Assembly: GCF_036365525.1 (NCBI RefSeq)
Contig: NC_090399.1
Location: 46,346,430 to 46,410,429, forward strand
Reading direction: 5' to 3'
DNA length: 64,000 bases
DNA from: Heterodontus francisci
Taxonomy: Eukaryota
Shown here: in pieces, positions 27,898 through 64,000 of the stretch
How the letters are laid out: each line of letters begins with the position of its first letter
Position numbering within the stretch: position 1 is the first letter of the stretch
Notes under the pieces: generated by a model
Database searches by the model: none
What the model was told of the DNA's origin: nothing
Seen by the model: only the letters and a program-made list of their open reading frames with translations
Translations under genes and position numbers: made by a program

Positions 27898-30840
27898 GGG
27901 CAGAATTTTAACTCCAATGGGAGGTGGGATTCGGGTGCGGACCCCAGGTGAGGGAGGAGGCGGGTGAAGCCCCGAAGCATGTCATTGGCCTGGCAACCCA
28001 ACATGATCCCGCCCAATTGCGGGATTGACCTGGGAGAGTTTGCAGGTGAGTGGGAAACCCCCCCGCCGCCCCCCACGGAGCAGTCGGATAGGCAATGTCA
28101 ATATATAAATCCGAATCAACTGAGAATTTAACTCAGCATTCTGGCTTTAACAGCCAGTGCACGGGTTTCCTGAGCGATATGGAACTCACCAGGGTCAACA
28201 GGGTAAGTGCACAGTGGGCATATGGGGCGGATGGGGGAATGGTGGGGAGGAGAGAGGGGGAGGGGGTGAGGGGGAATAGTGGGGGAGGGAGTGAGGGGGG
28301 AATAGTGGGGTGGGGAGCGGAGGGGAGGAGGAAATAGCAGGGCAGGGGAATAGTGGGTAGGGGGAGGGGGGAATAGTGGGGAGGAGGGAGTAGTGGGGAG
28401 GGGGAAATAGGGGGAGGGGGAATAGTGGGGAGGAGGGTGTAGTGGGGAGGGGGAAATAGTGGAGGGGGAATAGTGGGGAGGAGGGAGTAGTGGGGAGGGG
28501 GAAATAGGGGGAGGGGGAATAGTGGGCATGGGGAAATGGGGGAGGGGGAATAGTGGGGAGGGGGAATAGTGGGGAGGAGGAGGGGGAATAGGGGGAGGGG
28601 GGAATAGTGGTGAGGAGGGAGTAGTGGGGAGGGGGAAATAGTTGGGAGGGGGAAATAGTGGGGAGGGAGGGGGAATAGTGGGGAGGAAGGAGTAGTGGGG
28701 AGGGGGAAATAGGGGGAAGGGGAATAGTGGGGAGTGGGAATAGTGGGGAGGGGAGGGGGAATAGTGTGGAGGGGGGAATAGGAGGGAGGGGGGAATAGTG
28801 GGGAGGGGAGGAAAATAGTGGGGAGGGGGAATAGTGGTTAGGAGGAAGTAGTGGGGAGGGTGAAATAGGGGGAGGGGGAAATGAGGAGGGGGAAATAGGG
28901 GGAGGGGGAGGGGGAATAGGGGGAGGGGGAATAGTGGAGAGGAGGGAGTAGTAGGGAGGGGAAATAGGGGGAGGGGGAATAGTGGGGAGGAGGGAGTTGT
29001 GGGGAGGGGGAAATAGGGGGAGGGGGAATAGTGGGGAGGGGGAATAGTGGGGAGGGGGAGGGGGAAATAGGGGGAGGGCGAATAGTGGGAGGGGGAGATG
29101 GGAAGGGGAAATAGTGGGCGGGGGAAATAGGGGGAGGGGGAATAGTTGGGAAGGGGAAATAGGGGAGGGGGAAATGGGGAGGGGGAAATAGGGGGAGGGC
29201 GAATAGTGGGAGGGGGGAGGTGGGAGGGGGAAATAGGGGGAGGGGGAACAGTGGGGAAGGGGAAATAGGGGAGGGGGAAAGGGGGAGGGGGAGAGGTAAA
29301 TAGGGGGAGGGGGAATAGGGGGAGGGGGGAATAGTGGGGAGGAGGGAGTAGAGTGGAGGGGAATTAGGGGGAGGGGGAATAGTGGGGAGGGGGAGGGTGT
29401 AATAGGGGGAGGGCAAATAGTGGGGAGGGGGAAAATAGGGGGAGGGGGAAACAGCAGAGGGGGAAACAGAGGGAGGAGGAAACAGGGGGAGGGGGTGGGG
29501 GAAATAGGGGGAATAGTGGGGAGGGGGACGGGGAAATAGGGGAAGGGGGAATAATGGGGAGGGGGGAATAGTGGGGAGGGGGGAAATAGTGGGGAGGGGG
29601 ATGGGGAGGGAGAGGAGGAGGGGTCAAGAGTGGGCAGTGGGTAAATAGTGGGGAGGCAAATAGTGGAGAGACGGGGAAGGGGGAAATAGTGGGGAGAGGG
29701 GGGAGGGGGAAATAGTGGGAAGGGGAGGTGGGAGAGGGGAATAGTGGGAGAGGGAGGGAGGGGGAATGGTGGAAAGAGGGGAGGGAGGGTGGGGGGAATA
29801 GTGAGGAGGGAGAATAGTGAGGAGGGGGTGAGGGGGATAGTGGGGAGGCGATGAGGGCGGATAGTGGACAGGTGGTGAGAATGAGAAGTGGGGAAGGGGT
29901 GAGGGGAGTATAGTGGGGAGGGGGAGAGGGGGAAATAGTGGGAAGGGGAGGTGGGAGAGGGGAATAGTGGGAGAGGGAGGGAGGGGGGAATGGTGGGAAG
30001 AGGGGAGGGAGGGTGGGGGGAATAGTGAGCAGGGGGTGAGGGGGGAAGTGGGGAGGCGATGAGGGCGGATAGTGGGCAGGTGGTGAGAATGAGAAGTGGG
30101 GAAGGGGTGAGGGGAGTATAGTGGGGAGGGGATGAGGGGGGAAGTGTGGAGGGGGGAGGCTGAATTAGGGAAGGGGGAATGGGGAAGTTGGGAGGGGTGA
30201 GGGGAGTATAGTGGGGAGGGGTTGATAGGGGAATAGTGGGGAGGGGGGTTAGGGGGGTTAGTGGGGGGGATGTGGGGAGGGAGTGTGGGCAGATATTGGG
30301 GAGGGGTGAGGAGGGAAGGGCGGAGGGGTGAGGGGAGTATGGTGGGGAGGGGTGAGGGGGAAGTGGGTAGGGGTGAGGGGGCAATAGTGTGGAGGCGGTG
30401 AGGGGGGTTTGCTTCAGTAGAACTGACAGGATGGGATGTCTCCAAAGAGTGAAACTGAAAAGCCGCTTCCCTGCCTAGGTGAGAGGCAGCTGCTCACAGA
30501 GAGTATGCTCTCTCTGCTTGACAGGCTATATTTAAATCATGGGAAGTCCATTCACCTGCCTTCACCTTGATCTGCATTTCCCTGCTGCCAGCCTTCACTG
30601 CAGCATGGGAGCAGCTTCGACAGCTCCACCTTGGATAAGGAACAAAAGGAGCAGCAACTCCAACACTAACAGCACCAGCAGCACCAGCAGCACCAGCAGG
30701 AGCAACACCACGAGCAGCAGCACCAGCAGGAGCAACACCAGCAGCAGCAGCAGTTGTCTTCTCTTCAGTCCCATGGTGCTGAGGACATGCCTAGAGAGAG
30801 AGGAATGAGTGGAGCTGCAAGGTGTGTTACTCTGAGGAAT
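27898..30840 (+). mobile_element. Possible PIF/Harbinger DNA-transposon remnant (left end plus Q/H-rich ORF start) hosting the G-rich array
   Basis: GGGCAGAATTTT terminal-like motif at 27898; degenerate frame ..QHQQHQQEQHHEQQ..SHGAEDMPRERG at 30635-30830; no matching right TIR and no catalytic domain seen. Confidence 0.3.
28230..30410 (+). repeat. G/purine-rich low-complexity array (GGGGAATAGTGGGGAGG)n, ~2.2 kb
   Basis: Direct reading; extreme G/A strand asymmetry. Confidence 0.97.
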
Positions 30841-34261: not shown

Positions 34262-34593
34262 GGGCGGCACAGTGGCGCAGTGGTTAGCACCGCAGCCTCA
34301 CAGCTCCAGTGACCCGGGTTCGGTTCTGGGTACTGTCTCTGTGGAGTTTGCAAGCTCTCCCTGTGACTGTGTGGGTTTCTGCCGGGTGCTCCGGTTTCCT
34401 CCCACAGCCAAAGACTTGCAGGTTGATAGGTTTATTGGCCATTATAAATTGCCCCTAGTGTAGGTAGGTGATAGGAGAATGGTGGGGATGTGGTAGGGAA
34501 TATGGGGTTAATGTAGGATTAGTATAAATGGGTGGTTGTTGGTCGGCACAGACTTGGTGGGCCGAAGGGCCTGTTTCAGTGCTGTATCTGTCT
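34262..34593 (+). mobile_element. HE1-like V-SINE, full length
   Basis: A box TGGCGCAGTGG, B box GGTTCGGTTC, V domain, tail GGGCCGAAGGGCCTGTTTCAGTGCTGTATC. Confidence 0.9.
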
Positions 34594-37283: not shown

Positions 37284-37547
37284 CTTTTTTTTTACAAAAT
37301 ATACTTTATTCATAAAAATCTGTGAAAAATACATTTCCAAACAGTTTAAAACAGCATCAAGTCAAAAAATGCAAACAGTGCAAAGGTGATCAGTTTCCTT
37401 CTATACAATCATTAGTTGCCTCACAACCCTTCCATTTCATTGTTATGCCAATTACATTTTTACATTTACATCACACAAAATTTTCCTGATACAGTTCGAG
37501 GGGTTTCCCATGGATCCAGCCCCTCCTTTCAGCTTGGTGGGGGGACC

Positions 37548-40500
37548 TTACACTGTGGTCTTTCCCCATTGAGCCTTTGCTGCGGCTGCCCCAAGCTTTA
37601 CTGCGTCCCTCAGCACGTAGTCCTGGACCTTGGAATGTGCCAGTCTGCAACATTTGGTGGTGGACAACTCTTTGCGCTGGAAGACCAGCAGGTTTCGGGC
37701 AGACCAAAGGGCGTCTTTCACCGAATTGATAGTCCTCCAGCAGCAGTTGATGTTTGTCTCGGTGTGCATCCCTGGGAACAGCCCGTGGAGCACAGACTCC
37801 TGTGTTACAGAGCTGCTTGGGATGAACTTCGACAAAAACCACTGCATCTCTTTCCACACCTGCTTTGCAAAGACACATTCCAGAAGGAGGTGGGCAACTG
37901 TCTCTTCCCCACCACAGCCACCTCGGGGGCATTGGGCAGAGGGGGGCGAGACTTCGGGTGTGCATGAACGATCTGACGGGGAGGACTCTTACCACCAGCC
38001 AAGCTACATCTTGGTGCTTGTTTGAAAGTTCTGGTGATGAGGCATTCCGCCAAATGACTTTGGCGATCTGCTCGGGGAACCATCCGACAGGATCCCCCGT
38101 CTCCTTTTCCCGTAGGGCCTTGAGGACATTCCGTGCAGACCACTGCCTGATGGATTGGTGGTCGAAGGTGTTTTCCTGCAGAAACTGCTCCATGAAGGAT
38201 AGGTGGTATGGCACGGTCCAACTGCATGGAGTGTTCCACGGCAATGTGACCAGGCCCATCCTTCACAACACTGGGGACAGATAGAACCTCAGCACGTAGA
38301 GACACTTGGAGTTTGCGTACTGGAGGTCTACACACAGCTTGATGCAGCCGCATACGAAGGTGGTCATCAGGATGAGGGCCACGTTGGGTACATTTTTCCC
38401 GCCCTTGTCCAGAGATTTGAACATCGTGTCCCTCCGGACCTGGTCCATTTTAGATCCCCAGATGAAGCAGAAAATGGCTCGGGTGACCGCCACAGCACGG
38501 GAGTGGGGTATGGGCCAGACCTGCGCCACGTACAGCAACAACGTGAGCGCCTCGCACCTGATGACCAGGTTCTTACCCACAATTGAGAGAGATCGCTGCC
38601 CCCACATGCCCAAATTTTGTCGTACCTTGGCTACTAACTCCTCCAAGGTTTTGGTGCATGCCCTGGCCCTTCCGAACCATATCCCCAGCACCTTCAGGTA
38701 ATCTGACCTGACGGTGAAGGGGACAAAGGATCGGTCAGCCCAGTTCCCAAAGAACATGGCCTCGCTCTTGCCGTGGTTAACTTTGGCTCCCGAGGCCAGT
38801 TTGAACTGGTCGCAGATGCTCATCAGTCTGCGCACAGACAGCGGATCCGAGCAGAAGACGGCGACGTCATCCATGTACAGGGAGGTTTTAACCTGAGTGC
38901 CTCCGCTGCCTGAGATTGTCACCCCTCTTATGCTCGCATCCTTCCTAATAGACTCAGCAAAGGGTTCAATACAGCAAACAAACAAGACCGGGGAAAGAGG
39001 ACAGCCCTGTCTGACTCCAGATTGGATCGGGAAACTTTCTGATTCCCACCCATTGATTGAGACTGCGCTACTGATGTTTGTGTAGAGCAGTTTGATCCAA
39101 TTGCAGATTCCCACCCCAAACCCCATTTTGGAAAGCACGTCCATCATGTAGGTGTGCGATATCCTGTTAAAAGCCTTCTCCTAGTCCAGGCTGATGAGGC
39201 AGGTGTCCACCCTCCTGTCCAGTACGTAGGCGATCGTATCCCTGAGTAGCGCGGGACTATCAGAGATCTTCCTGCCGGGTACAGTACAGGTCTGATCAGG
39301 GTGGATCACCAACTCCAGAACAGACTTGACTCGACTGGCTATGACTTTGGACAGAATCTTGTAGTCAACATTAAGCAGTGAGATGGGCCGCCAATTTTTG
39401 ATTTCTGCCCTCTCCCCCTTCCGCTTGTAAATGAGGGTGACGATGCCTTTCCTCATGGATTCTGACATGCAGCCGGTCAGGAGCATACTCTCGTATACTT
39501 CCAGCAGGTCCGGGCCGACCCAGTCCCACAGGGCCGAGTACAACTCGACCGGTAAGCCGTCGCTTCCGGGAGTTTTACTCATCTCGAAGGACTCGACGGC
39601 CTTTGTCAGCTCGTTCAGAGTTAGCGGCTTGTCCAGTCTCTCCCTCCTGCTGTCATCTAAGACCTCTGTGATAGATGACAGGAAGGACTGGGAGGCTCTG
39701 CTGTCTGTGGGCTTCGCGTCATACAGCCCAGCATAAAAGGATTTGCTGATCCTTAGTATGTCGGACTGCGAAGACGTTACCGAGCCATCTTCTTCCTTCA
39801 GGCTGCTGATAACAGAGCTCTCTCTGTGTACCTTTTGGAAGAAGTAACGTGAGCACGGCTCATCCTGCTCGATGGAGCGGACTCTGGACCGGAATATGAT
39901 CTTGGAGGCCTCCTTGGCAAAGAGCGAGGCCTGCTGGCTCTTCACCTCTTGGAGGTCCTCCTTGACCTCGACCCCCATTGACTGCAACCGGAGCAGATTT
40001 TGCACACTTTTCTGGAGTCGGGACATTTCCCTCTGTCTCTCTCTCACCCTCTGAACACCTTTGTGGATGAAGAACCTCTTGATGTTCTCCTTGATCGCTT
40101 CCCACCAGTGAACTGGAGACTCAAAGAGGGGTTTCACGGTCCTCCAACCTTTGTAATCCCTTTTGAGTTCCTCAACGTTCTCTGGGGTCAGCAGTGTAGC
40201 ATTGAGCTTCCACGTCCCTCTGCCAACCCGCTGGTCGTCCTGTAAGTGACAGTCGGCCAGTAAGAGGCAGTGGTCGGAGAAGAACACCGGCTTGACGTTG
40301 GTGGATCCGACCGTGACGGGACAGGACACAAACAGGAAGTCAATCCTGGAACGGGCAGACCCGTCCGATCTTGACCATGTGTATCTGCGCTGCGCTCCGT
40401 CTGCAGGTTTGCTGAAGACGTCGTGCAGTTTGGCATCTTTAACTGTTTCTATTAGAAATCTGGACGTAGCGTCCAGTTTGCTGTCGTCACTGCCGGATCG

Positions 40501-40953
40501 TCCAGCCGCATCGATGATGCAGTTGAAGTCACCGCCTAGGATGACCGGCCTGGACGTCGCCAGCAGCAGTGGGAGCTGCTGGAAGACGGTCAGCCGCTCG
40601 CTGCGTTGTACCGGGGCGTACACGTTGATCAACCGGAGCGGAGCGTTGTTGTACATCACGTCTGCTACGAGGAGGCGACCGCCCACCACCTCCTTAACTT
40701 CGGAGATGGTGAAGTTACCTCCCCGCAGCAGAATACCCAGGCCGGAGGAACGACAATCATTACCCCCCGACCAGATCGATGGCCCGTGGGACCACCATCG
40801 CGACCACTGCCTGTAGGTGCTGAGGTGTGGTATTCCACACTCCTGCAGAAACAGTAGGTCGGCTTTGACCTTGGCGAGGTAATCTAAGGTTGAAACACGT
40901 CACGTAGTAGATTTAATACTATGCACATTAATGGAAGCAATTCTTACAGTCAT
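37548..40953 (-). pseudogene. Tx1 ORF2 (APE-RT-zinc finger), few stops and frameshifts
   Basis: ATG at 40953 (MTVRIASINV), GGDFNC, FFSDH, NWRPISLLNVDYKI, GVRQGCPLSP, YMDD; in-frame stop at 39181. Confidence 0.9.
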
Positions 40954-40963
40954 TTTTTTATAG

Positions 40964-42190
40964 TTAGTTGTTGCTTCCCATACCATTTGTCCTTGCTAGT
41001 CCCAGTCCTTCGGGATGTTCCTGCATACCCATTGTGTGAGCAAGCAGTTTCACGTTGGTTGGGCTCAGAAACCCCTCCTGGTTTTTCATGCAGGGTTTGT
41101 TCTGCTGGGGTGACATCGGGGGGATCTTGTAGGCAGCAAAGATTGAGTTGTCCTCTACTGCTTCCCTCTGTTCCTCCTCGAAAACATCACTGCTCCCAGC
41201 TTCCCGGAGCTGAGGTACGCCAGACGTGTCTTTGCTCTCGGTGTCCCGGAGCTGGGATGCGTTGGCCACGTCATTGCGTGTGGCACTTTGGGGTTGGGGC
41301 ACGCCAGGCCCATCACAGTTTCCACTGCCCGGGGGCTGGGATGCTTCATCTTCCATTTCCTTTGAGTTCTGCCGCCTTTTTTGAAGGGGCTGTCGTTCCA
41401 GCATTCCCCCGTCCAGTGAAGAGGAGTTGTTGCAGTCTGATTCAGAAGATAGCCTCCTCTTGCCACTGGTTTGGGTGGTGGCCTGTTCCGCTTTTGGATG
41501 TTTTTACTTTGTGATTTTCCTCTGGACCACTTGCCGCTGACCTGTTTGTCCATCTGCTGCCTCCTCCTCCATTGATTCTGTCTGTGGAGGAGGGGTTTCC
41601 GGGTGCAAGGTAGGTGCTGGGTCGCTGGTTTCAGCTGCCTCCCCTTCCTTCTCCTTCTCAGGTTGAAGTTCCTCATTGCGGGGAAGGTTGCTGGTCTCCT
41701 TTCGAACACCGGACGCCTTCGTCGAACCTTCTCCCGGCCTTTCCTTGGACCTTGCCGCCTGAGCATAACTGAGGCAGCGTTTGGGGCAGGTTTTGTAGAG
41801 GTGGCCTGCCGCACCGCACAAGTTGCAACACTTAGTCTGCTTACAGTCCTTGGTCTGATGGCCTTCCTCCTTGCAGTTCTTGCAAACAACTGTGCTGCAG
41901 TTGGCTGCCACGTGGCCAAATTTGCCACAGGTGTGGCAAACTCTGGGCTGCCCAGCGTAGACCAAGAAGCCTCGACTTCCCTCGATAGCGAAGCTGGAGG
42001 GAGGGTGGATGATGGCTCCACTGGCATCAACCTTCAAGGTCACCTTGACCTGCCGCTTGCTGGTCCAAATCCTAAAGGGGTCCTTGACATCAGTGCTGCT
42101 GCCGGCCACCTCGACGTACCTGGCGAGAAAGGTGAGTACATCCACCACCGGAACATGGAGGTTGTAGAGGTGAATCGTCACCACCCGGTC
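40964..42190 (-). pseudogene. Tx1 ORF1 (ZCCHC3-like, triple zinc knuckle), truncated and frameshifted
   Basis: YAGQPRVCHTCGKFGHVAANC, CKNCKEEGHQTKDC, CNLCGAAGHLYKTC. Confidence 0.85.
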
Positions 42191-42328
42191 CCAGAGATAG
42201 GGGACAGAGTAATAGTAAAGGCCGTGCCATCGAAACCAAGACTGGCGCCCTGCTGGACGGGACACTACACGGTCCTAATGACCAGCGACACCTCTGTGTA
42301 TTTGGATATGCCAGGGGCAGGGGAGTAG
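42185..42328 (+). pseudogene. pol: ERV integrase C-terminal (GPY/F-like) domain
   Basis: GDRVIVK..LAPCWTGHYTVLMTSDTSV, ending at a stop. Confidence 0.8.
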
Positions 42329-42412
42329 ATGGAAACACTGGTCTCAGGTTAAGTTTACGACTCACAGTCTGTTTCTGCCAACAGGAGGGCCAGCAGCAGA
42401 TCTCGTAATTAT

Positions 42413-43004
42413 TTTGTTTCAGGTAAACCACTGGAACAATGGCAGCCTGGTGGACAACGGCATCAGTGATCTCCCTCCCGACAACTGCGGCAGCATGGGA
42501 GGCACCCACTGTGGGAGCCATACTTGTGTGCATCCCGGGCAGTATGTTCAGCTCCCAAAAGGGGGAAAGGGAGAATGGAAAAGAATCCGGGACGGATGGG
42601 GGTCATGCACGAATAAGCGACGTGTTGACAGAATCTGACAAAACCAAGGGACTGACAATAAATGAATCCTGAGCCCATGCCAAAACTGGGATTGTCCTAA
42701 CGATTAACTAACCTGGGATGCTCACAAGGCCTGCCAGACCGCTGTAAAAAATCTACCCCACATGGGCGGTCTTTACCCTGCAGGGGACGACTACATGCAG
42801 GCTCTTGAGAAGGATTTGGGATCATACACTTACCTAAAGGCTCGCAATGATACGACGGGAGAGCTGACTGTAATGACAGCATATGGGACGGATACTGGGG
42901 TGGGAGAATGGGAATTCGCCTGTACACGAGCACAAACCTTGACTCTGAGTCACAGGGAGAGTTTGTGTACAATAAGTAAAGATGCCAAAGGTAGCTGGAT
43001 TTGA
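42413..43004 (+). pseudogene. Degenerate ORF at the env position of the ERV (spliced, signal-peptide-like start)
   Basis: Acceptor TTTTGTTTCAG just upstream of ATG 42439; MAAWWTTASVISLPTTAAAW; a Cys/Trp-containing frame continues to 43004 with stops. Confidence 0.45.
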
Positions 43005-49344: not shown

Positions 49345-52300
49345 AGAAATGAAGTTGGAAGGACTTCACTCTTCTTCGAAAATGGCTTTATAGTTCTTAC
49401 ACCTCTTTCCACTTCACCATTTGATTGTGGATACAGTTGTGAACTTGTGAGATGTCGAAATCCCATTCTTGTTGCAAACTGTGTGAGATATTCATTCGCA
49501 AATGGAGGATTGATGTTTGGTGTTTAATTAGCTGCCCGAGAAAATAGAAATTATAATAAAGTCTTTGCAGATCACGCTTCCTATTATGGTCTTCAAATTC
49601 CATACAGTCCAAGTTCACTTGCAGTCTTCCAAGGTCCGATGAGGGAAGAATCCTTTCAGAGATAAGAATTCAGCAGTTCAGTTCAGCATTTGAAGCATCA
49701 AACTTTTCTTCTGTCTTCTAGCGATGAACACAGCAGATCAATAATTGGTTATTTTCTTCAAGGATTTCATCTGGCTTCAAGTTTTTAGAAGAGAGAGAAT
49801 AATAAACTAACTTCTCTTCCTTCAGTTTAAATGGTCTGAGAGCACTTCTTTCTCCCTTCTGGTGCTGGCATGCAGCTGTGTCAACTACCTGTGCCTGCCA
49901 GCCAGTTTCAAAGTTAAATGTCATTGTATTTCGTCTCTTCTTGATTTGAATGGTAGCTAAGCAACTAGAATGCACTTTCGCTCAGTCACTGGAACTTGTT
50001 CCCTTAAAGATGTACTGATCCCTTACAGGCTTAAAGGTGCACCGCTTATAAAGAAAAAGGATCATGACACGTCCGCCCCTGGTGAAATGAAACACCATTC
50101 CCGAAATGCGTTTCATTACAATGTCAAAAAATAGATATTGAAAAACACTAACATTTTTTTCCCATATGTAGATATACTATTTTCCTAAAATGGTACGACT
50201 ACAGCAACAAGTTCCATCAGAACATTTTCAGCTTTAAATTTTACAAAGTTTGTCCCAATTATCCCATTTCAACCTTCCAAATATAGCCTCCCAGTTGTTT
50301 TGTGTTTTCCTTCCAAGTGTCCCTATTGTCCATCACCTCAGCCAGGTGAGCTGCACAGCTAGGAGCACTGACCACTACTGGGTTCACTATTCTCTGAGAA
50401 GTTTCTCAAGTATTTCTTAATCTATGTGGCATCACTTGACACTGGAAAACCCTGTCCGGTGTAACAGAATCTGACCTTTCCTTATCTTAGGGTGTCAAAG
50501 GAATTTGACAGAATCCCTCCAACATATCTGTCTCTTTAAGACACATTGTGTTGCCCACTCTGTCCATACAATCCTTTAAATGAGAATTTAGATAGGAGTC
50601 GGCCTTCTTTACCACAGTGACTTTTCTAGAGTCTATGCAAGTTTGAGCCGACTCACCAGGTTTAGTCATCAAGACCATCTGCGAATTCCAGCTGTCCTGA
50701 CTAGGTTCATCTGAGCTGCCCTTCTGTCTGCATTGTACCTCCGCTTCCACTTGGGCCTGTCTGTCTGGACCTAAGTGACAAGGATGTTGTTTTAAAGGAA
50801 TGGCTCCCCCTATACCCACATCATGTGTGGCTAAGGTTGTGCATCCTGGCTCATCCCTACAAACTCTTTTAAACAACACTGTTTTGTCTCTAAGTGCAAA
50901 AATATATTGTCGAATTTTCCTAGCCGTTCTGTATTCGCTAATTTGATTGTTGGAGGTTCATTCTGAGAATTTCCTGGGCCTGCTTCTGCCTCATCCTCAT
51001 TATCCTTTTCCTTCTCAACAGTCCCAATTACCTGAAATACCTGTACTGGCTTATCCTGCTGCCTGTGATAATATTGCTTTAGCATATTGATGTGACATAA
51101 CCGGTTCTTCTTCAGGCAATCAGGGGTGTTTATCAAGTAATCTACTTTACTTACTCTTTTGATCACTCTATATGGGCCACTGAACTGTGCTTTCAATGGT
51201 TCTCCCTGTAATGGTAACAACACTAATACTTCATCCCATGGTTGAAACTCACGGGCTTTTGAATTCTTGTCTGCCCATTTTTTCACATTGGCTTGGGATG
51301 CTTTAAGGTGTTCCTGAGCTACACCATAAGCTTTTGTCAGCCTTTCCTGGAACACAGATATGTAGTCTAGTATCGAAGATTCATTCTTTTGTTCCAAGAA
51401 TCTGTCTTAAGTTTTAGAGGACTTTTTACTTCTTGTCCGTAAACTAATTTGAAAGGACTGAAGCCTATAGACACATTCGGTGAGTCTCTGGTGGCAAATA
51501 AAAGAAAATCTAGTCCTTTATCCCAGTCACGTGGATATTTGTGACAGTATGTTTAAATCATTGTTTTGAGAGTTTGGTAAAATCTCTCTAAAGCTCCCTG
51601 TGACTGTGGGTGACAGGCTGAAGATTTCAACTGTCTAATCCTCAAATTGCCCATGACTTCCTCAAATATCCTAGACCTGAAATTAGAACCTTGATCTGAT
51701 TGAAATTCAAGTGGCAACCCATACCTAGTAAAGAATTGGGTTAACTTTTCTACTACTGCTCTACTGTTCTCAAAGGAATGGCCTCTGGAAATCGAGTAGC
51801 CATATCCATGATAGTAAGTATGTATTGATGTCCCACTTTTGTTTTTGGCAAGTGTCCTACAGTCTACTAACACCCTGCTAAATGGTTCCTTAATCACTGG
51901 TATGGGAACTAGTGGTGGCGGTTTTATGGTAGATTGAGTTTTTCCCACCATTTGACATTTATGGCAAGTCCTACAAAATTGTCTCACATCCTTTGTAAGA
52001 CCTGGCCAGTAATAACGTTTGCTTATGTGTGATTTGGTCTTCGGAATTCCCCTATGTCCTGCAAAAGGAATGTTTTGTGCTAACCTTAATAATCTTTGGT
52101 GATATTTAGGTGGTACCACTATCTGTTCAACAACTGTCCAGTCTTCGTCAGCAGGTCTATGAGGCAGTCTCCATTTCCTCCTCAAAACCCCGTTTGCAAT
52201 ATAATAGCCTTCTGGAAATCCTTTCGCCTCAGCTTCTGACAGAGCCATCTGTGCTATTCGATATATCTCTGGATCAGCTTGTTGTGCTACAACAATAGAT

Positions 52301-52355
52301 GATCTGTTAAACATCTCATTTGTATTATCTAAATCCCCAATAAGGTTTCAGATGC
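49345..52355 (-). mobile_element. Gmr1-like Gypsy element: integrase, truncated RT, 3' LTR (begins 50069)
   Basis: AGHRGIPKT..CRTCHKC, QSDQGSNF, QGALERF, FSGPY, then IPLKQHP..LEGFCQIPLT (RT start) downstream of IN; LTR begins TGTCATGAT after a G-rich tract. Confidence 0.85.
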
Positions 52356-52876
52356 TTGGCTATCTATTTGTGGTGCCCCTTTTACCTCCGACAATGGATC
52401 CTGTTTAGTCATTGCTTGAAGAGGCCTGAAGACTCAGGGGTGGGGCAGCCAAATCCAGTAAGGGCCCCTGTGTTTGTATTGGTGTTGCACACAGGGAGCT
52501 CCCTCCCCACCCCAACTGCCTGCTCGGGACAGCTGGAGTTGCCCGGGTGAAGACTGTCTTGTTAAAATCAGAAGAGGAGAATACCGGGCGGCTCCAGCTG
52601 TCCTGGGCGAAGAAGCCTCCCCCAACTGGAAGACAACAAACAAGTTTGGACTAATTGTGATAAAGGTGCTCCAACTGGCAGTTGAAACAAACATCCTTTT
52701 CAGCCTTTCTCTCCCTTCCTCCACTCAGTCGCCTCAATCACCTATCCTCCCCTTTTCCTTTACCATCCTACGCCATCCTCCTCTACTCCCACTCCACCTT
52801 GTTTAAAGTTTGCTTTTTTAAAAAAATTGTGTAAATTTGTTTTGTTTCTTGGGGGTGGACGTAGCTCTTAGACCCC

Positions 52877-54916
52877 ATGGCAAGCCCCTCTTCGCCGGTG
52901 GCGGGGCCTTCCCGTTCATATGCTGCTGCGGCTGCTGCAGCTGCACCTGTTGCCCCGTCACCGTTTGCTTTATTAACAACGAAGCATGGGGTCAAGAGCT
53001 ACGTCCACCCGAACATGACTATAGAGGCATGCGTGAAAGCAATGGCCGAGGTTGTCGGCCCTTCGGCCATTGTTGCAGCCTCTAAAATGTACGGGAAGGC
53101 AGTGTTTTTCCTGAAGACCGAGCGGGCGGTGTCCCTGGCTCTGAGCAAGGGGCTCACCGTGGGCGGGACCTTTCTGCCAGTGGACCCCCTGGAGGCCACT
53201 GCGCAAAGGCTCATTTTATCCAATGTCCCACCCTTCATCCCTGGTGAGCTCCTCCTTCCCCACCTGCACCATCTGGGGGAGGTAAAGACGGGGCTCACCC
53301 CAGTCCCGCTCGGTCTTCGGGAGAACAGCCTCCGACACGTCTACTCCTTCCGCCGCCAGTTATTCATGCAGCTGGCGCGGGAGGAGGTGACAGAGGGCCA
53401 CTTCAATGTAGAATTCCAGGGGACGGCCTACCGCGTCTTCTGGACCTTGGACGGGGTGCGGTGCCATGTCTGTAAGGGGGTGGGGCATGTTCGTAAGAAC
53501 TGCCCCAACCTCCCGGCTGCCAACTCCAACTCAGCGGCCCAGGGTGGCGACGCTGCACCTCCTCCCACCCCCACTACACCACCACCAGATACCATTCAGT
53601 CGGTACCGGAGGCTGTGGTTTTCACGGCCTCCGGCAGGGAGGGGGGTGACCGTCCAAGTGGAAGGAAGGCGCGGAGGAGAAATAAACATCGAGAGGCGCG
53701 TCCCCTGGATATCGTGACACTACCCGAGCCTGAGCTCAGCCCAAGGCCAAATCTCGGGAAGTCAAGTTGCCCCAGGGCTGGGCTCAGGCCCAGGGTGAAT
53801 AAAAAAAAGGAGAGTGTGGAGGTGGAGGCCTCTGATGATATGGAGGTCTCTGAGCCTCCGCACACAACTGGGAAAAAGAGGAGAAGGCACCCCTCCACAG
53901 AGGTAACAAGGGGCCCTGAGGCGCAGGGCCCATCTGTTGGAGGGGAGCTGCCTCCTGTTTCGGGTCCCCAGGTTTCCCCTACCGCCACCACCAAGGCTGC
54001 AAAGTCCGGGCAGGTGCTCCCTATTCCTCAGGACGGAGGGGAGGGGATGGCCCCGGTACATGAGGCCCCTCCTGAAGGAGTAAGTGGGGCCCTGCTTGTG
54101 GTGGGGGAGCCTGGGGAAGCCGCCCATTCTTCCACTGCTACTGGGTCGGGTGTCCTGAATGAAGGGGAGGGCGAGGCCCCAGAGGGTCGGGCCTCCCAGC
54201 CGGAGTCCACCACCAACCAGGAGACACCCGACCCAGTTATAACTGAGAATGCTGCCCCACCTGCTGGGCCTGTGGGTGCTGGCGGAGCGGGAGATAGCCT
54301 CCTCCCTCCGCCTCCAATCTCGGCTCCGGCTGGTTTCCCGGAGTCGGGAACTTCTGTCTCCCCTGGACCACTCATTGCCCTGGGGACGGAGGTGGAGGGG
54401 GGTCCTGAACCGCTGGTGCCTACAGGCTCCAGTTTCACAATAGAACCCAGAGAGGACTCCTCTGCCATCGATCCTGGGGGTGGGATCGTGACGGAGGCGG
54501 GACCAGCTGGCGCGGCCGGGACGTCCGCCCCACAGTGTGTGGTGGATGTGTTGGCCGCTGGCGGTGATGACCCGGAGGAGGATGGGGATTCGGTGCGGGG
54601 CACGGAGGATGATCTTGATTCCATCGCCAGTGAGGTGGTGGAGTCCCTCGTGCCTCCCACCGAATCTCCTCTCATCCCCACGGCGGAACTCCGGGATTTC
54701 CTCGCGGCTTGCAGGGGTTGCCGCAATAAAGTTCAGCTGGCCCTCGACCGTTGGTCGAATCTGGCGCTGATCATCCAGTCCGTCCGTGCCGCCCTTAAGA
54801 TAGCGGGCAAGCGCGCGGACGTGAAACTGGTTGAGAGGCGCCGTTTTAATGTGTTCCTCAATGGGTTGCTGGGGGAGTGGAGGGCCAGGTGCACTTCCAC
54901 TCCCTCCTCACAGTGA
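52877..54916 (+). CDS. Tx1 ORF1 (gag-like nucleic-acid-binding protein, 679 aa)
   Basis: SAIVAASKM..VFFLK, ILSNVPPFI, HVYSFRRQ, CHVCKGVGHVRKNC; uninterrupted ORF. Confidence 0.88.
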   Translation: MASPSSPVAGPSRSYAAAAAAAAPVAPSPFALLTTKHGVKSYVHPNMTIEACVKAMAEVVGPSAIVAASKMYGKAVFFLKTERAVSLALSKGLTVGGTFLPVDPLEATAQRLILSNVPPFIPGELLLPHLHHLGEVKTGLTPVPLGLRENSLRHVYSFRRQLFMQLAREEVTEGHFNVEFQGTAYRVFWTLDGVRCHVCKGVGHVRKNCPNLPAANSNSAAQGGDAAPPPTPTTPPPDTIQSVPEAVVFTASGREGGDRPSGRKARRRNKHREARPLDIVTLPEPELSPRPNLGKSSCPRAGLRPRVNKKKESVEVEASDDMEVSEPPHTTGKKRRRHPSTEVTRGPEAQGPSVGGELPPVSGPQVSPTATTKAAKSGQVLPIPQDGGEGMAPVHEAPPEGVSGALLVVGEPGEAAHSSTATGSGVLNEGEGEAPEGRASQPESTTNQETPDPVITENAAPPAGPVGAGGAGDSLLPPPPISAPAGFPESGTSVSPGPLIALGTEVEGGPEPLVPTGSSFTIEPREDSSAIDPGGGIVTEAGPAGAAGTSAPQCVVDVLAAGGDDPEEDGDSVRGTEDDLDSIASEVVESLVPPTESPLIPTAELRDFLAACRGCRNKVQLALDRWSNLALIIQSVRAALKIAGKRADVKLVERRRFNVFLNGLLGEWRARCTSTPSSQ

Positions 54917-54948
54917 GCTGTTGGTGACGGGTTTTAAGTACCTTTGAC

Positions 54949-57900
54949 ATGAAGATAATCATAGCCAGCCTCAACATCAACGGCAGCAGAGGGGCTCACC
55001 GCAGATTTCACAATCTCTCAGTCCTTAGGGAAGGGAGATACGCGGTGAGCTTTCTGCAGGAAACCCACACCGTTCCGGGAGACGAAGCCACCTGGCTCCT
55101 GGAGTGGCAGGGTGGGGTCTACATGAGTCACCTCACCCCTATTTCTAGTGGGGTGGATATCTTGTTGGCCCCGACTTTTCAGCCGGAGATCTTGGGGGTC
55201 AAGGAGCTAGTGCCGGGCCGCTTGCTCCACCTCGCCGTTCGCCTGGGTAGCGTGCCGCTCCACTTTGTGAATGTGTACGCGCCCAGGCCCGGCGCTTTGC
55301 AAGCGCGCTTCTTTGAAGAAGTGTCCGCTCTCTTGAGCTCCATCGATAGCGGCGAGTGCATCATCCTCGGGGGGGATTTTAACTGCACCCTCGAGGTGGG
55401 GGATCGCTCCGGTCCCCAGCGCGGCCAAGCGTCGGTGGAGAAGTTGAGGGGACTGATCAGCTCCCTTAACTTGGTGGACGTCTGGCGGAATCTCCATCCC
55501 GACTCCAGCGCCTTCACGTGGAGGTCTGGAGGAGGGGGGTCGCGAATCGACCGCCTCTACATTTCGCAGGCGTACGTCTCCCGCGTTTCGGCGGCCTCCA
55601 TGCGGCTGGTGCCGTTCTCGGACCACCGCCTGGTGTGGGCGGAGTTCACTCCGCTCCGCACGCGGGCGGGGTCCGCGTACTGGCACTTTAACAACCGGCT
55701 GCTGGAGGACGTGCGATTTCGGGACTCGTTCTGTCGATTCTGGGCCGACTGGAGAAGGAAGCAGGGGGGCTTCCCCTCCTTGAGGCTATGGTGGGATGTG
55801 GGCAAGACTCACATCCGCGTCTTCTGTCAGGAGTACGCGAAGGGGTCGACCAAGAGGCGGGAAGCCGAGATCGGGCGCCTTGAGAGGGAGGTGCTCGACT
55901 TGGAATCCCGCCTCGGTCATGCCGTCGCGGACCCGGCCCTGTGGCAGGCGTACAAAGAGAAGAAGGGCGCGCTGAGGAACCTGCAGCTCATAGGGTCCCG
56001 AGGCGCGTACGTGAGGTCGCGGATCCAGATCCTGGAAGATTTGGACCGCGCCTCACCCTTCTTCTACTCGCTGGAAAAATGGCGGGGGGTCCGTAAGCAG
56101 CTCGTCGAGCTGCTGGCCGACGACGGATCCTCCATCACGGATCCGGAGGGAATGGGCCTCCTGGTCCGGACGTATTACAGTGCGTTGTTCTCTCCGGATC
56201 CGTCCAGTGAGGATGCGCGCAGAGTTTTGTGGGAGGACCTGCCGCAGGTCAGCCCGGAGGGCGCCGAAGGATTGGAGGCTCCGCTCACGTTGGCGGAGCT
56301 GACTGGCGCCCTCCACCAGCTCTCGAGGGGCAAATCCCCAGGGCTGGATGGGTTGACCGTGGAGTTCCTCAGGGCGTTCTGGGACGTCCTGGGGGACGAT
56401 TACGAGCGGGTCCTGGGGGAAAGCCTGGCAACCGGGGAGATGCCCCTCTCGTGGCGCAGGGCGGTCATCGTCCTGCTGCCGAAGAGGGGCGATCTCCGCC
56501 TGCTTAAAAACTGGCGTCCGGTCTCCCTCCTCAGCACGGATTATAAGATCTTTGCCCGGGCTATGTCTACCCGCCTGGGCTCCGTGCTGGCCCACATGAT
56601 CCACCCCGACCAGTCCTACACGGTCCCGGGCCGGTCCATCCAGGACAACATCCACCTGGTCCGGGACCTGATCCATCTTTCCCAGAGGACTGGTCAGTCG
56701 GTCGCCTTTCTCTCCCTCGATCAGGAGAAGGCGTTCGACAGGGTGGATCACGATTACCTTTTCGGGACTCTGCGCGCTTTCGGACGTCCGACTTTTATAC
56801 GCCGCCGCAGAGTGTCTAGTCAAAGTTAACGGGTCCTTGACGGCGCCCCTTCGATTTGGGAGAGGAGTGCGTCAGGGGTGCCCCATGTCCGGCCAATTGT
56901 ATACCATCTGCGTGGAGCCCTTCCTGTGCCTGCTTCGCAGGAGGTTGACGGGATTGGCTCTGCGCGAGCCGGCCATGCGGGTCGTCCTCTCGGCTTACGC
57001 CGACGACGTGCTCCTCACAATCACAGATCCCGTTGACTTGCGGAGGATGCGCGACTGCCAGCAGACCTTTTCTGCTGCGTCCTCCGCGAGGATCAATTGG
57101 GAGAAATGTTCCGGACTCCTGGTTGGTCAGTGGCGGGTGGACTCCCTGCCGGAGGAGATGACACCTTTTGCGTGGAGCACCACGCACCTCCTCTATCTGG
57201 GAGTCCACCTTAGCCCCGCTGAGGAAGCCTGGCCGGCAAACTGGCAGGAGTTGGAGGCGAAAGTCACCGCTCGGCTGGGGCACTGGACAGGACTGCTCCG
57301 AGTGCTTTCCTACAGGGGCCGAGCGTTGGTCATAAACCAACTGGTGGCCTCCATGCTGTGGTACCGGTTGGTCACTTTGGCCCCGCCCCCTGTATTTGCC
57401 ACCAAGATCCAGAAGAAACTCGTCGATTTCTTCTGGGGCAAGAGGAAACACTGGGTCTCTGCCGCGGTCCTGAGTCTCCCGATCGAGGAGGGCGGTCAGT
57501 CGCTGGTGTGCGTCCGCACCCAGGCTGCGACTCTCCGCCTTCGGACCCTGCAGAGATACCTGTACGTCGAGCGTCCTCCCAGATGGTGTGCGCTGGCGAC
57601 GTATTTTTTCCGCCAGTGTCACTGCCTTCAAGACGACACGCAGCTCCCGGTGGAGTCCGTTAGCCGCGCCTCTCTGAGGGAGTTGCCTGTCTTTTACCGG
57701 GATCTTTTCCGAGTCTGGAACATGGTCGCCTCCAGTCAGGGCGCTCCCCCGCCGGCGGAGGAGAGCGCCTCGGCTGTCCGGGCGGCCGACTCTGGGGACG
57801 GTCCGGCGGGCGGAGGAGTAGCCGAAACCCCCGGGACGCCCCTCACTGCGGGTGGCGAGGGGGCTCGGGAGTGCGGAGCGATCCCGGCCGAGCTGACCCC

Positions 57901-58663
57901 CGCTCGGCCGGAACTGCTCATCGGACCCAGGCCCCGAAACCCTCCTCGGGAGCCGGTCCCGCACAACCCGAGCCGCCTCTCGGAAATGCCCTCCGTGCCA
58001 TTCCAATCGGCGCGGAGGGGTTTCCTGTACGGGCTGCTCCTGCACACTCTCCACTTCCTCGCCCTCGTCAGCCGGCCGGACACGCCCTGGCGGTCCGCGT
58101 TGCCATCTGGCGGCGAGGGGAAACCCCGATGGAGGTCTCTCTACGCGGGAGTCTTCCCCCTTTACATCGGGGACCTGGGGTGGAGGGTGCTGCACAGAGC
58201 AGTCCCGTGCAATAGGCTTTTAAGTAGGTTCACGGACTCCCAGGCCACCTGTACTTTCTGCGGCCTGGACGAGTCCGTGTTCCACATTTATATGGAGTGT
58301 GCGAGGTTGCAGCCCCTATTTGAGTTTCTGAAGGGGCTGCTCCTCAAATTCTGGCTGCACTTCAGTCCCACGCTCCTGATCTTTGGGCACCCGGTGCGGA
58401 GGGGCTTGGGCCGGGAGGAGGATCTCCTCGTCGGTCTGCTCCTGGGCCTGGCCAAGGTGGCAATTCACAGGTCCAGGTTGCGGGCCGTCGGGGGGTCCGT
58501 CCTCCCCGATTGCCTGCCCCTCTTCCGCGGTTACGTTCGCGCCCGGGTGTCCCTGGAAAAGGAGCATGCGGTGTCCGCCGGTACGCTTGAGGCCTTCCGC
58601 GACCGGTGGGCACCGCAGGGACTGGAGTGCATCGTCGACGCCGAGAATGGCATTTTAATTTGA
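54949..58663 (+). pseudogene. Tx1 ORF2 (APE-RT-zinc finger), broken by a small deletion at ~56785
   Basis: SLNING, FLQETH, GGDFNC, FSDH, NWRPVSLLSTDYKI, LDQEKAFDRV | GVRQGCPMS, YADD, CTFCG..H..EC. Confidence 0.92.
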
Positions 58664-58832
58664 GTTTTTTTTTTTGTTTATTTATCTGTTTTAATAAAGT
58701 TATTTTAAAACTGTAAATATGTACATAAAGAGGGCCTGAGGGATAAAGGCCCCCTCGATGTGAAAAATATAAAAGGGGCCTGGGGTATAAAGGTCACCTT
58801 GTAAAAAAAAAGAAAAAAAAAACAAAAAAAAA

Positions 58833-59047
58833 CGGGTTAGATACAGAGTAAAGCTCCCTCTACACTGTCCAAAAAAAAAAAAACGGGGGTTAGATACAGA
58901 GTAAAGCTCCCTCCACACTAAAACAAAAAAAAAAAACAAAAAACGGGTTAGATACAGAGTAAAGCTCCCTCTACACTGTCCCCATCAAACACTCCCAGGA
59001 TTGGTACAGCACGGGGTTCGATACAGAGTAAAGCTCGCATTACACCA
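58833..59047 (+). repeat. Repeated CGGGTTAGATACAGAGTAAAGCTCCCTCTACACTGTCC units separated by A-tracts; native unit 68 bp
   Basis: Copies start at 58833, 58884, 58944 and 59012. Confidence 0.95.
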
Positions 59048-60196
59048 CCCAACCCCCGGCCCCCGGAATGCCAACACCTCTGTCTCAATCATCAAGAGAG
59101 AAAGGGGGAAGCATTTGTCCACATAGCTCCCGCTTCGCAGACGTACATTGATCCAGTGAGACTGACAGTCCATAATCCGCTACGTGCATGGCCCTTGTGT
59201 TGTTCTTCATTGACATAATTGAGGAAGGTTTTGCAGGCTGCACAGACACTGGCCCATGGCACTGCCTATCTGTGAATCAATGTAAGTCTGCCGAGAATGC
59301 CTAATGCATATACATTTCTTCCCCAAACTCTTAAAAGCAAGAGATTCTGTATAAAAGTTGCTGTTATTTCCAAAAATACACCAATACAGATTGTCAATTA
59401 ATTTATAAACCTCAAGCATGCCATATTTATTCTGTAACTGGTCGGGGATCCTTACAGAAACTACGTCACTGCAACTGAAAATGCTTTCCAAAAATCTGTA
59501 AATGAAATGTATCCTGTTCTCCCAGTACGTGTTCAAGAAGGATCTGCTCTCCCAACACAGCAGAATGATCCAGTTCACAAGGAGACCACTCAGCCCATTG
59601 CATCTGTCCTGGCTCTTTGGCAGAGCTATCCAATTAGTTTCACTCCCCTGCCCTGTCCCAATAGTCTTGTCAATTTTTTCCCTTCAAGCATTTCTCCAAT
59701 TCCGTTTCTCCAGCTGTGCCCCCTCGATTATCGGCACTGCCTCAGGCGAGTGGAACCGCTCAACTTGTATCTCATCCAAGTAGCCCTTCAGTCAGTTATT
59801 CAACCATGGAGGGCATCAGAGATGAGCACAGGCTTGTTTTCGCCCACTCACACGCAAAACCATACCTGCTTGCACTCCCTGGTAGAGATCACTGGACAGA
59901 AACTCAGCAGCAGAAACGCTGCCGACCTTTCCTCACTATACTTTATTGGGCAATGAAGTCAACTGGGCCTCCTTACACTTTCTGCAAGGCCCAGCAAACC
60001 GAGCACAAAAACAGTGACAGAGTCCAGGGTCTCGACAACCTGCTGCTTCTGGCTGAGTCCCGGACACTGACCTGGACACCCAATTTCCGCCACCCCAAAC
60101 CCTGAATCGCAAGAGGAGCCGCCGAGGGCTCTCACGCCGCTGTCTCTCTCTTCCCCAGGGTTCAGAGATTCAGGTCTTGCGCATGGACATTGACTC

Positions 60197-61442
60197 AAAG
60201 AACAAAGACAAAGAACAAAGATAATTACAGCACAGGAACAGGCCCTTCGGCCCTCCAAGCCTGCGCCGATCCAGATCCTCTCTCTAAACATGTTGCCTAT
60301 TTTCTAAGGTTCTGTATCTCTTTTCTTCCTGCCCATTTATGTATCTGTCTAGATACATCTTAAAAGACGCCATCGTGCCCGCATCTACCACCTCCGCTGG
60401 CAACGCGTTCCAGGCACCCACCACCCTCTGCGTAAAGAACTTTCCACGCATATCCCCCCTAAACTTTTCCCCTTTCACTTTGAACTCGTGTCCTCTAGTA
60501 ATTGAATCCCCCACTCTGGGAAAAAGCCTCTTGCTATCCACCCTGTCTATACCTCTCATGATTTTGTACACCTCAATCAGGTCCCCCCTCAACCTCCGTC
60601 TTTCTAATGAAAATAATCCTAATCTACTCAACCTCTCTTCATATCTAGCGCCCTCCATACCAGGCAACATCCTGGTGAACCTCCTCTGTACCCTCTCCAA
60701 AGCATCCACATCCTTTTGATAATGTGGCGACCAGAACTGTACGCAGTATTCCAAATGTGGCCGAACCAAAGTCCTATACAACTGTAACATGACCTGCCAA
60801 CTCTTGTACTCAATACCCCGTCTGATGAAGGTAAGCATGCCGTATGCCTTCTTGACCACTCTATTTACCAGCGTTGCCACCTGCAGGGAACAGTGGACCT
60901 GAACAGCACAATCTCTCTGGACATCAATTTTCCCCAGGACTTTTCCATTTACTGTATAGTTCACTCTTGAATTGGATCTTCCAAAATGCATCACCTCGCA
61001 TTTGCCCTGATTGAACTCCATCTGCCATTTCTCTGCCCAACTCTCCAATCTATCTATATTCTGCTGTATTCTCTGACAGTCCCCTTCACTATCTGCTACT
61101 CCACCAATCTTAGTGTCGTCTGCAAACTTGCTAATCAGTCCACCTATACTTTCCTCCAAATCATTAATGTATATCACAAACAACAGTGGTCCCAGCACGG
61201 ATCCCTGTGGAACACCACTGGTCACACGTCTCCATTTTGAGAAACTCCCTTCTACTGCTACTCTCTGTCTCCTGTTGCCCAGCCAGTTCTTTATCCATCG
61301 AGCTAGTACACCTTGGAACCCCAAGCGCCTTCACTTTCTCCATCAGCCTGCCATGGGGAACCTTATCAAACGCCTTACTGAAGTCCATGTATATGACATC
61401 GACAGCCCTTCCCTCATCAATCAACTTTGTCACTTCCTCAAA
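60197..61442 (-). mobile_element. Young 5'-truncated CR1, probable TSD GACTC
   Basis: 346-aa open RT C-terminal ORF (GVPQGSVLGP, FADD); (TTCTTTG)n tail; GACTC at 60192 and 61443. Confidence 0.93.
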
Positions 61443-61609: not shown

Positions 61610-64000
61610 TGTCTGCACCCCAATGTGAGTGAGTCGGGGTCTGTTACACAGTGTTAGTGAGTCGGACCCTGCTCCCCAGTGTGTGTGAGTCGGATCCTGT
61701 TCCTCAGTGTGTGAGTCGGGGTCTGTTCCCCAGTGTGTGTGAGTCGGGGTCTGTTACACAGTGTTAGTGAGTCGGACCCTGCTCCCCAGTGTGTGTGAGT
61801 CGGATCCTGTTCCTCAGTGTGTGAGTCGGGGGCTGTTCCCCAGTGTGTGTGAGTCGGGGTCTGTTATACAGTGTTAGTGAGTCGGACCCTGTTCCCCAGC
61901 TTGGGCGAGTTGGGATCTGTTCCCCAGTGTGAGTGAGTCGGGGTCTGTTACACAGTGTTAGTGAGTCGGACCCTGTTCCCCAGTGTGTGTGAGTCGGATC
62001 CTGTTCCCCAGTGTGTGAGTCGGGGTCTGTTCCCCAGTGTTAGTGAGTCGGACCCTGTTCCCCAGTGTGTGTGAGTCGGATCCTGTTCCTCAGTGTGTGA
62101 GTCGGGGTCTGTTCCCCAGTGTGTGTGAGTCGGATCCTGTTCCCCAGTTTGAGAGAGTCGGGGTCTGTTCCTCAGTGTGAGTGAGTCGGGGCCTGATCCC
62201 CAATGTGAGTGAGTCGGGGTCTGTTCCCCAGTGTGAGTGAGTCGGGGCCTGTTCCCCAGTGTGTGTGAGTCGGATCCTGTTCCCCAGTTTGAGAGAGTCG
62301 GGGTCTGTTCCTTATTGTGAGTGAGTCGGGGTCTGTTCCCCAGTGTATGTGAGTCGGACCCTGTTCCCCAGTTTGAGAGAGTCGGGGTCTGTTCCTCAGT
62401 GTGAGTGAGTCGGGGTCTGTTCCCCAGTGTGAGTGAGTCGGGGCCAGTTCCCCAGTTTGAGAGAGTCGGGGTCTGTTCCTCAGTGTGTGAGTCGGGGCCT
62501 GTTCCTCAGTGTGAGTGAGTCGGATCCTGTTCCCCAGTGTGAGAGAGACGGGGTCTGTTCCCCAGTGTATGTGAGTCGGACCCTGTTCCCCAGTGTGAGA
62601 GAGTCGGGGTCTGTTCCTCATTGTGAGTGAGTCGGGGTCTGTTCCCCAGTGTATGTGAGTCGGACCCTGTTCCCCAGTTTGAGAGAGTCGGGGTCTGTTC
62701 CTCAGTGTGAGTGAGTCGGGGCCTGATCCCCAATGTGAGTGAGTCGGGGTCTGTTCCCCAGTGTGAGTGAGTCGGGGCCTGTTCCCCAGTGTGTGTGAGT
62801 CGGATCCTGTTCCTCAGTGTGTGAGTCGGGGTCTGTTCCCCAGTGTGTGAGAGTCGGGGTCTGTTATACAGTGTTAGTGAGTCGGACCCTGTTCCCCAGT
62901 TTGGGCGAGTTGGGTCCGTGTCCCAGTGTGTGAGTAGGGGTCTGTTCCCCAGTGTGAGTGTCGGGGTTTGTTCCTCATTGTGAGTGAGTCGGGGTCTGTT
63001 CCCCAGTGTGAGCGAGTCGGGATCTGTTCCCCAGTGTGAGTGAGTCGGCATCTGTTCCCCAGTGTATGTGAGTCGGACCCTGTTCCCCAGTGTGAGAGAG
63101 TCGGGGTCTGTTCCTCATTGTGAGTGAGTCGGGGTCTGTTCCCCAGTGTATGTGAGTCGGGGTCTGTTATACAGTGTTAGTGAGTCGGACCCTGTTCCCC
63201 AGTTTGGGCGAGTTGGGTCCGTGCCCCAGTGTGAGTGAGTAGGGGTCTGTTCCTCAATGTGAGTGAGTCGGGGTCTGTTACACAGTGTAAGTGAGTCGGA
63301 CCCTGTTCCCCAGTGTGTGTGAGTCGGATCCTGTTGCTCAGTGTGTGAGTCGGGGTCTGTTCCCCAGTGTGTGTGAGTCGGGGTCTGTTATACAGTGTTA
63401 GTGAGTCGGACCCTGTTCCCCAGTTTGGGCGAGTTGGGTCCGTGCCCCAGTGTGAGTGTCGGGGTTTGTTCCTCATTGTGAGTGAGTCGGGGTCTGTTAT
63501 ACAGTGTGAGTGAGTCGGCATCTGTTCCCCAGTGTATGTGAGTCGGATCCTGTTCCCCAGTGTGAGAGAGTCGGGGTCTGTTCCTCATTGTGTGAGTCGG
63601 GGTCTGTTCCCCAGTGTATGTGAGTCGGACCCTGTTCCCCAGTTTGAGAGAGTCGGGGTCTGTTCCTCATTGTGAGTGAGTCGGGGTCTGTTCCCCAGTG
63701 TATGTGAGTCGGACCCTGTTCCCCAGTTTGAGAGAGTCGGGGTCTGTTCCTCAGTGTGAGTGAGTCGGGGTCTGTTCCCCAGTGTGAGTGAGTCGGGGCC
63801 AGTTCCCCAGTTTGAGAGAGTCGGGGTCTGTTCCTCAGTGTGAGTGAGTCGGGGCCTGTTCCTCAGTGTGAGTGAGTCGGATCCTGTTCCCCAGTGTGAG
63901 AGAGACGGGGTCTGTTCCTCATTGTGAGTGAGTCGGGGTCTGTTCCCCAGTGTATGTGAGTCGGACCCTGTTCCCCAGTTTGAGAGAGTCGGGGTCTGTT
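61610..64000 (-). repeat. Second array of the 28-bp satellite, inverted orientation, runs off the window
   Basis: Units GAGTCGG(GGT/ATC)CTGTTCCCCAGTGTGAGT are the reverse complement of the 18112-23931 unit; some 26-bp variants. Confidence 0.97.

Follow-up and report, generated by a model that had tools for sequence, protein, structure and literature searches.

Layered poly(A) tail of a Tx1-clade LINE in the shark Heterodontus francisci: a possible record of serial 3' transduction from a repeated target

The 3' end of a Tx1-clade LINE in the shark Heterodontus francisci carried a layered tail, in which three A-tracts alternated with copies of a 68/69-bp repeat. We consider it reasonably probable that this tail was built by two serial 3' transductions, carried out by a LINE with a preferred site in that repeat. 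The window, meaning the whole 64,000-nt stretch analysed here (NC_090399.1, forward strand, positions 46,346,430 to 46,410,429), contained the junction listed below in window coordinates. Depths refer to contigs from 4 sequencing runs of the 24 listed, for which 58797-58950 was excluded as repeat; run X6 was only guessed to be RNA and came from the same sample as run X1, and runs X7 and X9 were labelled as other organisms.

58803-58832, plus strand: A-tract 1 (A9 G A10 C A9), the Tx1 element's own tail
58833-58870, plus strand: unit 1, the first 38 bp of the repeat, 38/38 identical to unit 3, with AGTAAA at 58847-58852
58871-58883, plus strand: A-tract 2 (A13, no interruption)
58884-58919, plus strand: unit 2, 36 bp long, a variant with five G and a T>C, with AGTAAA at 58900-58905
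58920-58943, plus strand: A-tract 3, 24 nt (A4 C A12 C A6)
58944-59011, plus strand: unit 3, a full 68-bp repeat unit, the resident copy 3' of A-tract 3
59012-59045, plus strand: degenerate half unit of the repeat, 28/32 identical
59086-59300, no strand assigned: single-copy 3' flank, covered at a depth of 8.86 by X1 and at 0 by the remaining three runs

Re-parsing reproduced exactly the order given in the initial annotation, namely poly(A), 38 bp, A13, 36 bp, a 24-nt A-rich tract, a 68-bp unit, and a degenerate unit. The common end of the three A-tracts at GCA^CGGG, also claimed there, was confirmed, with the C of CGGG as the next base after each tract (3/3); a nick one base further left is equally possible, since the A of GCA is indistinguishable from the tail. 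For three tracts to share one end point among 68 bases, P was 2e-4, valid only if the ends are independent, and the shared base suggested a preferred site. The 25-nt core of the motif matched four times in the window (at most 3 mismatches), always at the junction, and was absent from all 100 shuffles. Unit 2 differed from units 1 and 3 by five G instead of three and by one T>C, and the last four bases of unit 1 were absent from it. A-tracts 1 and 3 showed a similar two-interruption pattern, and 58808-58870 matched 58920-58981 at 95% over 63 bp. For the insertion present here, A-tract 3 is the likely tail and 58944-59045 the likely target, while units 1 and 2 are likely the first and second transduced pieces, respectively.

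In sharks, the 68/69-bp unit is repeated abundantly and in dispersed form, and the length of its G-run varies; a rough depth ratio put its genomic background at about 0.3%. At 58979-58982, contig depth summed to about 1.8e6 for X1 and to 1e7 for X9. Among loose contig ends, of which 24 of 2868 were listed, 91 and 129 contigs of X9 showed successive units joined head-to-tail at an identical GCA^CGGG junction. The motif had been proposed as a native repeat, and both its depth and these head-to-tail ends bore this out. A gene model of Scyliorhinus torazame also contained a repeat unit of 69-bp period, translated there as coding sequence (one of seven candidates, E 6e-4). The four repeat copies in the window had runs of three, five, three, and four G, and the five-G form followed a native upstream half unit in 19 contigs of X6, a reading for which the position convention of the table was calibrated on neighbouring rows. 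Repeat depth in X6 (58944-59011) was 2.6e6 compared with about 1e3 for the element, a ratio far above that of the DNA run, and contig depth in X6 cannot rank expression. A small-RNA gene was considered as the target and rejected, as the five Rfam matches in 52200-60300 all fell far below the gathering score and none lay at the junction. The 25-nt core had no match in viral, metagenome, or prokaryote contigs. For the C-terminal half of ORF2, none of 78 candidate loci was confirmed in metagenomes and none was found in viral contigs. Chance reading frames across the junction yielded no homologue, two unrelated low-complexity matches, and no Atlas match.

The element had two ORFs plus a 3' poly(A) tail, as in the Tx1 clade. 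Its parts and its upstream neighbour were as follows.

50500..52419, minus strand: truncated Gypsy-type integrase region, Pfam integrase domains at 51553-52347, depth 5e4 at 52338, left end approximate
52420..52876, plus strand: probable 5' UTR of the Tx1 element, with a depth of 6e2-5e3 that marks it as multi-copy (single-copy flank, 8.86)
52877..54916, plus strand: ORF1, 679 aa, open by translation, with a CX2CX4HX4C knuckle
54949..58663, plus strand: ORF2, frameshifted, with APE endonuclease, reverse transcriptase, and zf-RVT (Pfam)
58664..58802, plus strand: 3' UTR, with AATAAA at 58693-58698 followed by a pair of homologous stem-loops
about 58722-58767 and 58768-58807, plus strand: stem-loops A and B, homologous, each loop containing or adjoining a variant poly(A) hexamer

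No Pfam family matched ORF1, and ORF2 carried PF03372 (E 8e-15) and PF00078 (E 2e-18). The endonuclease domain spans about residues 1-235. ORF2 is broken by a frameshifting deletion near 56786, the position at which 38 X1 contigs left the window sequence. This copy differed from the closest long contigs at 26 of 3971 and 25 of 2723 bases, and the low divergence indicated that it is young. Low-depth contigs about 99% identical to it within 52724-58632 were also present in X7 and X9, for which cross-contamination seems likelier than horizontal transfer; as cross-species support for a young copy they were dropped, their depth being very low and contamination possible. Summed X1 contig depth over the ORFs was 4e4-2e5, against 8.86 in the flank at 59086-59300; such a sum is no copy number, and we read from it a family of thousands of copies or more. 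The left end of the 5' UTR is approximate, possibly shortened by deletion. Within the 5' UTR, a near-perfect inverted repeat (52521-52610, plus strand; arms of about 27 bp, loop of 37 nt) gave no significant Rfam match, and the multi-copy stretch 52420-52620 folded at a z of -5.9 (0/200 shuffles).

The likely target flanked the element on the 3' side only, and the 5' side was the cut Gypsy integrase region, whose boundary with the element at 52419 was estimated from bin depth. No copy of the motif and no target-site duplicate was present at the 5' junction, the upstream half of the repeat unit had no match near it even at 11 mismatches in 30, and no identical target copy was found at both ends. 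Comparison of the 5' junction region with the 3' region gave a longest common word of 10 nt, located in the multi-copy 5' UTR. Of 710 joints, 15 were listed, and none of these connected the repeat with the element's 5' portion. Within the window, the Gypsy region did not continue beyond the 3' end of the element. A Gypsy LTR was rejected as the target, as the neighbour was integrase-region sequence on one side only, and a resemblance of the 5' junction to the 3' hairpins was set aside when 425 of 1000 shuffles proved as good. With a 5' side lacking the target, deletion or recombination is needed by every model that places target on both sides.

By serial 3' transduction, a first ancestor would have inserted at GCA^CGGG in a copy of the shark 68/69-bp repeat, its endonuclease presumably nicking that one position of the repeat. 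Its RNA may have been polymerised past the weak terminal TATAAA into the repeat, with cleavage 14-18 nt after the repeat's AGTAAA followed by polyadenylation, by which 38 nt of target would have been captured. The offspring would then have inserted into a further repeat copy of the five-G form, again at that base. A second read-through there would have added 36 nt, and the resulting RNA would have made the present insertion. Reverse transcription would have been primed from the outermost poly(A). The endonuclease would have to choose the position, because pairing between RNA and DNA through the captured unit would be expected to prime the inner tract and add no new layer. The missing 5' half of the target could have been lost by deletion during or after insertion, or by recombination between two copies. 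A family-wide preference for the 68/69-bp repeat, as suggested by this one locus, is quite likely.

Several features of the tail were consistent with read-through. Of the element's own signals, AATAAA is 110 nt away from the tail, measured from its first base, and only TATAAA lies close to the tail. AGTAAA was present in every unit; in the two short units (2/2), the distance from its first base to the next A-tract is 24 nt for A-tract 2 and 20 nt for A-tract 3, within the range of about 15-30 nt expected of 3' transduction. In Xenopus tropicalis, AGUAAA is over-represented at -23 +/- 4.6 according to Table 2 of PMC6616101, in which the position convention may differ. This spacing accounts for the 36-38-bp length of the units without long duplications, with a rough likelihood ratio of 27 relative to random ends and of 3.6 relative to a fixed stagger. 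The two differences of unit 2 in 36 bp had a P of about 0.02-0.04 for decay in place at the element's divergence, a value that would be higher in that G-runs slip faster than the rate used. As the five-G form occurs in native copies and decay in place is unlikely, unit 2 was counted in favour of transduction.

Other features were counted against it. The sequence after the supposed cleavage sites, for which the local unit served as a stand-in, contained 20% T and no usual U/GU-rich element, and neither supposed cut comes after CA. The 5' junction, with neither target remnant nor duplication, was counted in the same way, as were the 15 listed joints, in which repeat and 5' portion were never connected, and above all the searches for the core, ORF2, and junction reading frames, which yielded no junction from any further copy. 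A longer transduction ending further downstream was tried and rejected, as no A-run of at least 9 occurred on the plus strand after 58936 and no Gypsy continuation was present in the window.

A single insertion beside the repeat could instead have been followed by two local duplications at the DNA level, by slippage or unequal exchange, of an A-tract together with the start of a unit. The common end point would then be inherited, and no site preference would be implied. Local duplication predicts both the 95% match over 63 bp, including the similar interruptions of A-tracts 1 and 3, and the identity of units 1 and 3, points that weighed against transduction, and other unstable minisatellites are found within the window. 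However, the breakpoints at 34 and 38 share at most one base of microhomology, tract 2 is uninterrupted, unit 2 is a different variant, and the AGTAAA spacing would have to arise twice by chance, for which the likelihood ratio of about 27 applies. We regard local duplication as unlikely. The initial annotation had instead proposed three target-primed insertions at one site, two of which left nothing but poly(A), and a target-site duplication of 36-38 bp for each. The units are alike in length (34-38 nt of target), which would fit a fixed distance between nicks, and tandem insertions sandwiching a target-site duplication are described for SINEU-3, which is mobilised by Tx1-Mar (PMC4494074, section 14). 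That proposal nevertheless fitted the junction poorly and is, in our judgement, very unlikely: there is no 5' duplicate, the length is explained by the AGTAAA spacing, and the order and divergence of the units are wrong. Unit 1 is derivable only from unit 3, so the second event must strike AAAA^CGGG, and unit 2 would be the younger duplicate, yet it is the more diverged (two differences versus none). The target-site duplication of Tx1L is 23 bp. Reported duplications are shorter than those proposed, at 16 bp for SINEU-3 (PMC4494074) and under 20 bp for L1.

Template jumping during one insertion would also yield alternating layers, if the reverse transcriptase copied poly(A), jumped to a target overhang of 34-38 nt, copied back as far as the nick, and restarted on poly(A), twice, with the whole RNA copied last. 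One nick would give the identical end point, and an extra G might be added at a jump point. Against this, a 36-38-nt stagger with a 5' duplicate is required and the duplicate is absent, two errors in 36 nt are required, one of them equal to a natural variant, and the hexamer spacing is left to chance. The literature searched, which was not aimed at template jumping, contained no precedent that we met. Such jumping seemed highly improbable, and two serial 3' transductions remained our preferred explanation of the layered tail.

The older part of the tail, in the 3' UTR, contained further candidate signals. Hairpins A and B resembled each other more closely than in any of 1000 shuffles, and their fold had a z of -3.0 (1/200 shuffles). 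The variant hexamers precede an A-run by 21 and 17 nt. At position 58731, 31,121 of the 31,682 of X1 depth carried the letter that lengthens stem 1, and such a depth, about 3e4, indicated that the hairpin is a family feature. The stem-loop is probably an RNA signal for ORF2p. A resemblance of the hairpins to the 68-bp unit was rejected, with 481 of 1000 shuffles as good. The AATAAA at 58693-58698 lies in a context like that of the true end of another LINE in the window. A second LINE, of L1/Tx1 type (about 37285-42700, minus strand), is distant, with about 30% identity to Tx1 ORF2 and its own ORF1 region; it ends in AATAAA, 13 nt, and A9, with no repeat unit after its tail.

A bolder extension of serial transduction, which we consider doubtful, is that the repeat's AGTAAA supplies the poly(A) signal of the element, that the element's own terminator has decayed, and that the hairpins are fossils of a target captured earlier. 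Well-ended RNA would then come only from correctly placed copies, and the 3' UTR would grow as a ratchet of captured target. To regard the hairpin segments as older captures is speculation, as their hexamers lie in an A/T-rich region. If true, the tail would be a dated record of a target switch.

Other repeats were observed in the window. Arrays of a 28-bp minisatellite lie at 18142-23933 (207 copies) and 61611-64000 (at least 86 copies) in opposite orientation, with long chance ORFs. A purine-rich G-run repeat with a period of about 17 bp occupies 28256-30405 (GC skew 0.87) and is a possible G-quadruplex former. An interspersed repeat of about 340 bp, probably a SINE, is present in three copies (13237-13582, 27230-27575, and 34262-34589) at 88-97% identity.

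No description of the 68/69-bp repeat as a target was found in the mainly open-access literature searched, including by motif. Repeat-targeting by Tx1 elements and 3' transduction by site-specific LINEs are already published, and it is the landing site that would be new. If confirmed, a shark-wide 68/69-bp repeat would join the list of Tx1 targets, and a close relative of Tx1L with a different, shorter recognition loop would be useful for understanding how the specificity of APE endonucleases changes. Stacked target fragments would allow insertion pedigrees to be drawn from single loci, with the caution that such stacks may be miscalled as long target-site duplications. Knowledge of the clade would be unchanged unless a target-supplied poly(A) signal proves general.

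In humans, 3' transduction was reported in 76 of 698 full-length L1 elements, with the weak own signal bypassed (PMC8647825), and it has been observed for the site-specific R7Ag and R1Bm (PMC7265360). In transduction by L1, SVA, R1Bm, and R7Ag, as presumably in the shark element, a weak own signal is passed over in favour of one further downstream, and an internal poly(A) is left behind (PMC8647825, PMC10760644, PMC3287187, PMC7265360). In contrast to L1/SVA, R1Bm, and R7Ag, the shark pieces are very short (36-38 bp), are stacked twice, and consist of the target itself. With the target as the captured piece, each layer would also mark an earlier landing site.

Membership in the Tx1 clade, as first proposed, was upheld by the Pfam APE and RT domains, by 55% identity to Xenopus Tx1, and by the EN-RT tree, which was the placement originally called for. 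Among the 120 matches listed, the nearest named relatives were the X. laevis Tx1 ORF2 (55%; 54.5% and 56.5% in the two frames), proteins of turtle Tx1 (48-54%), and part of a stingray gene model, 70% identical across half of the query. The catalytic motifs of ORF2 aligned with those of Tx1 ORF2. In the tree, the element and X. laevis Tx1 clustered with two Caretta proteins as a clade of four rows at an SH-aLRT of 100; this was a quick tree of 28 rows, 26 of them from the 120 matches listed, in which Keno, Dewa, Kibi, and Koshi were unidentifiable by name. The view that several Tx1 families are target-specific agreed with the Fig. 3 legend of PMC4494074 (Kojima 2015), in which Tx1-clade targets include transposons, microsatellites, satellites, U2, U5, and 5S; a family counts there as target-specific when over 20% of the flanks of its copies share a sequence type. 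Tx1-Mar, Keno, Kibi, and Koshi share with the shark element the clade and the target-preferring habit, but the target of the shark element differs. Keno targets U2 snRNA, whereas the 3' flank of the shark element contained no U2 (Rfam, 52200-60300). Tx1L of Xenopus laevis (Tx1 ORF2, YTX2) is the nearest named relative, with 55% identity over 612 columns and the same pairing of APE endonuclease and RT. It goes into a multicopy element by means of a sequence-specific endonuclease (PMC4494074, PMC1950540). Whereas Tx1L inserts into the DNA transposon Tx1D, the candidate target of the shark element, as judged from one locus, is a dispersed tandem repeat of 68/69 bp. The bB6-bB5 loop, which in Tx1L has 11 residues with RDGH (PMC1950540), is four residues shorter in the shark element and lacks RDGH.
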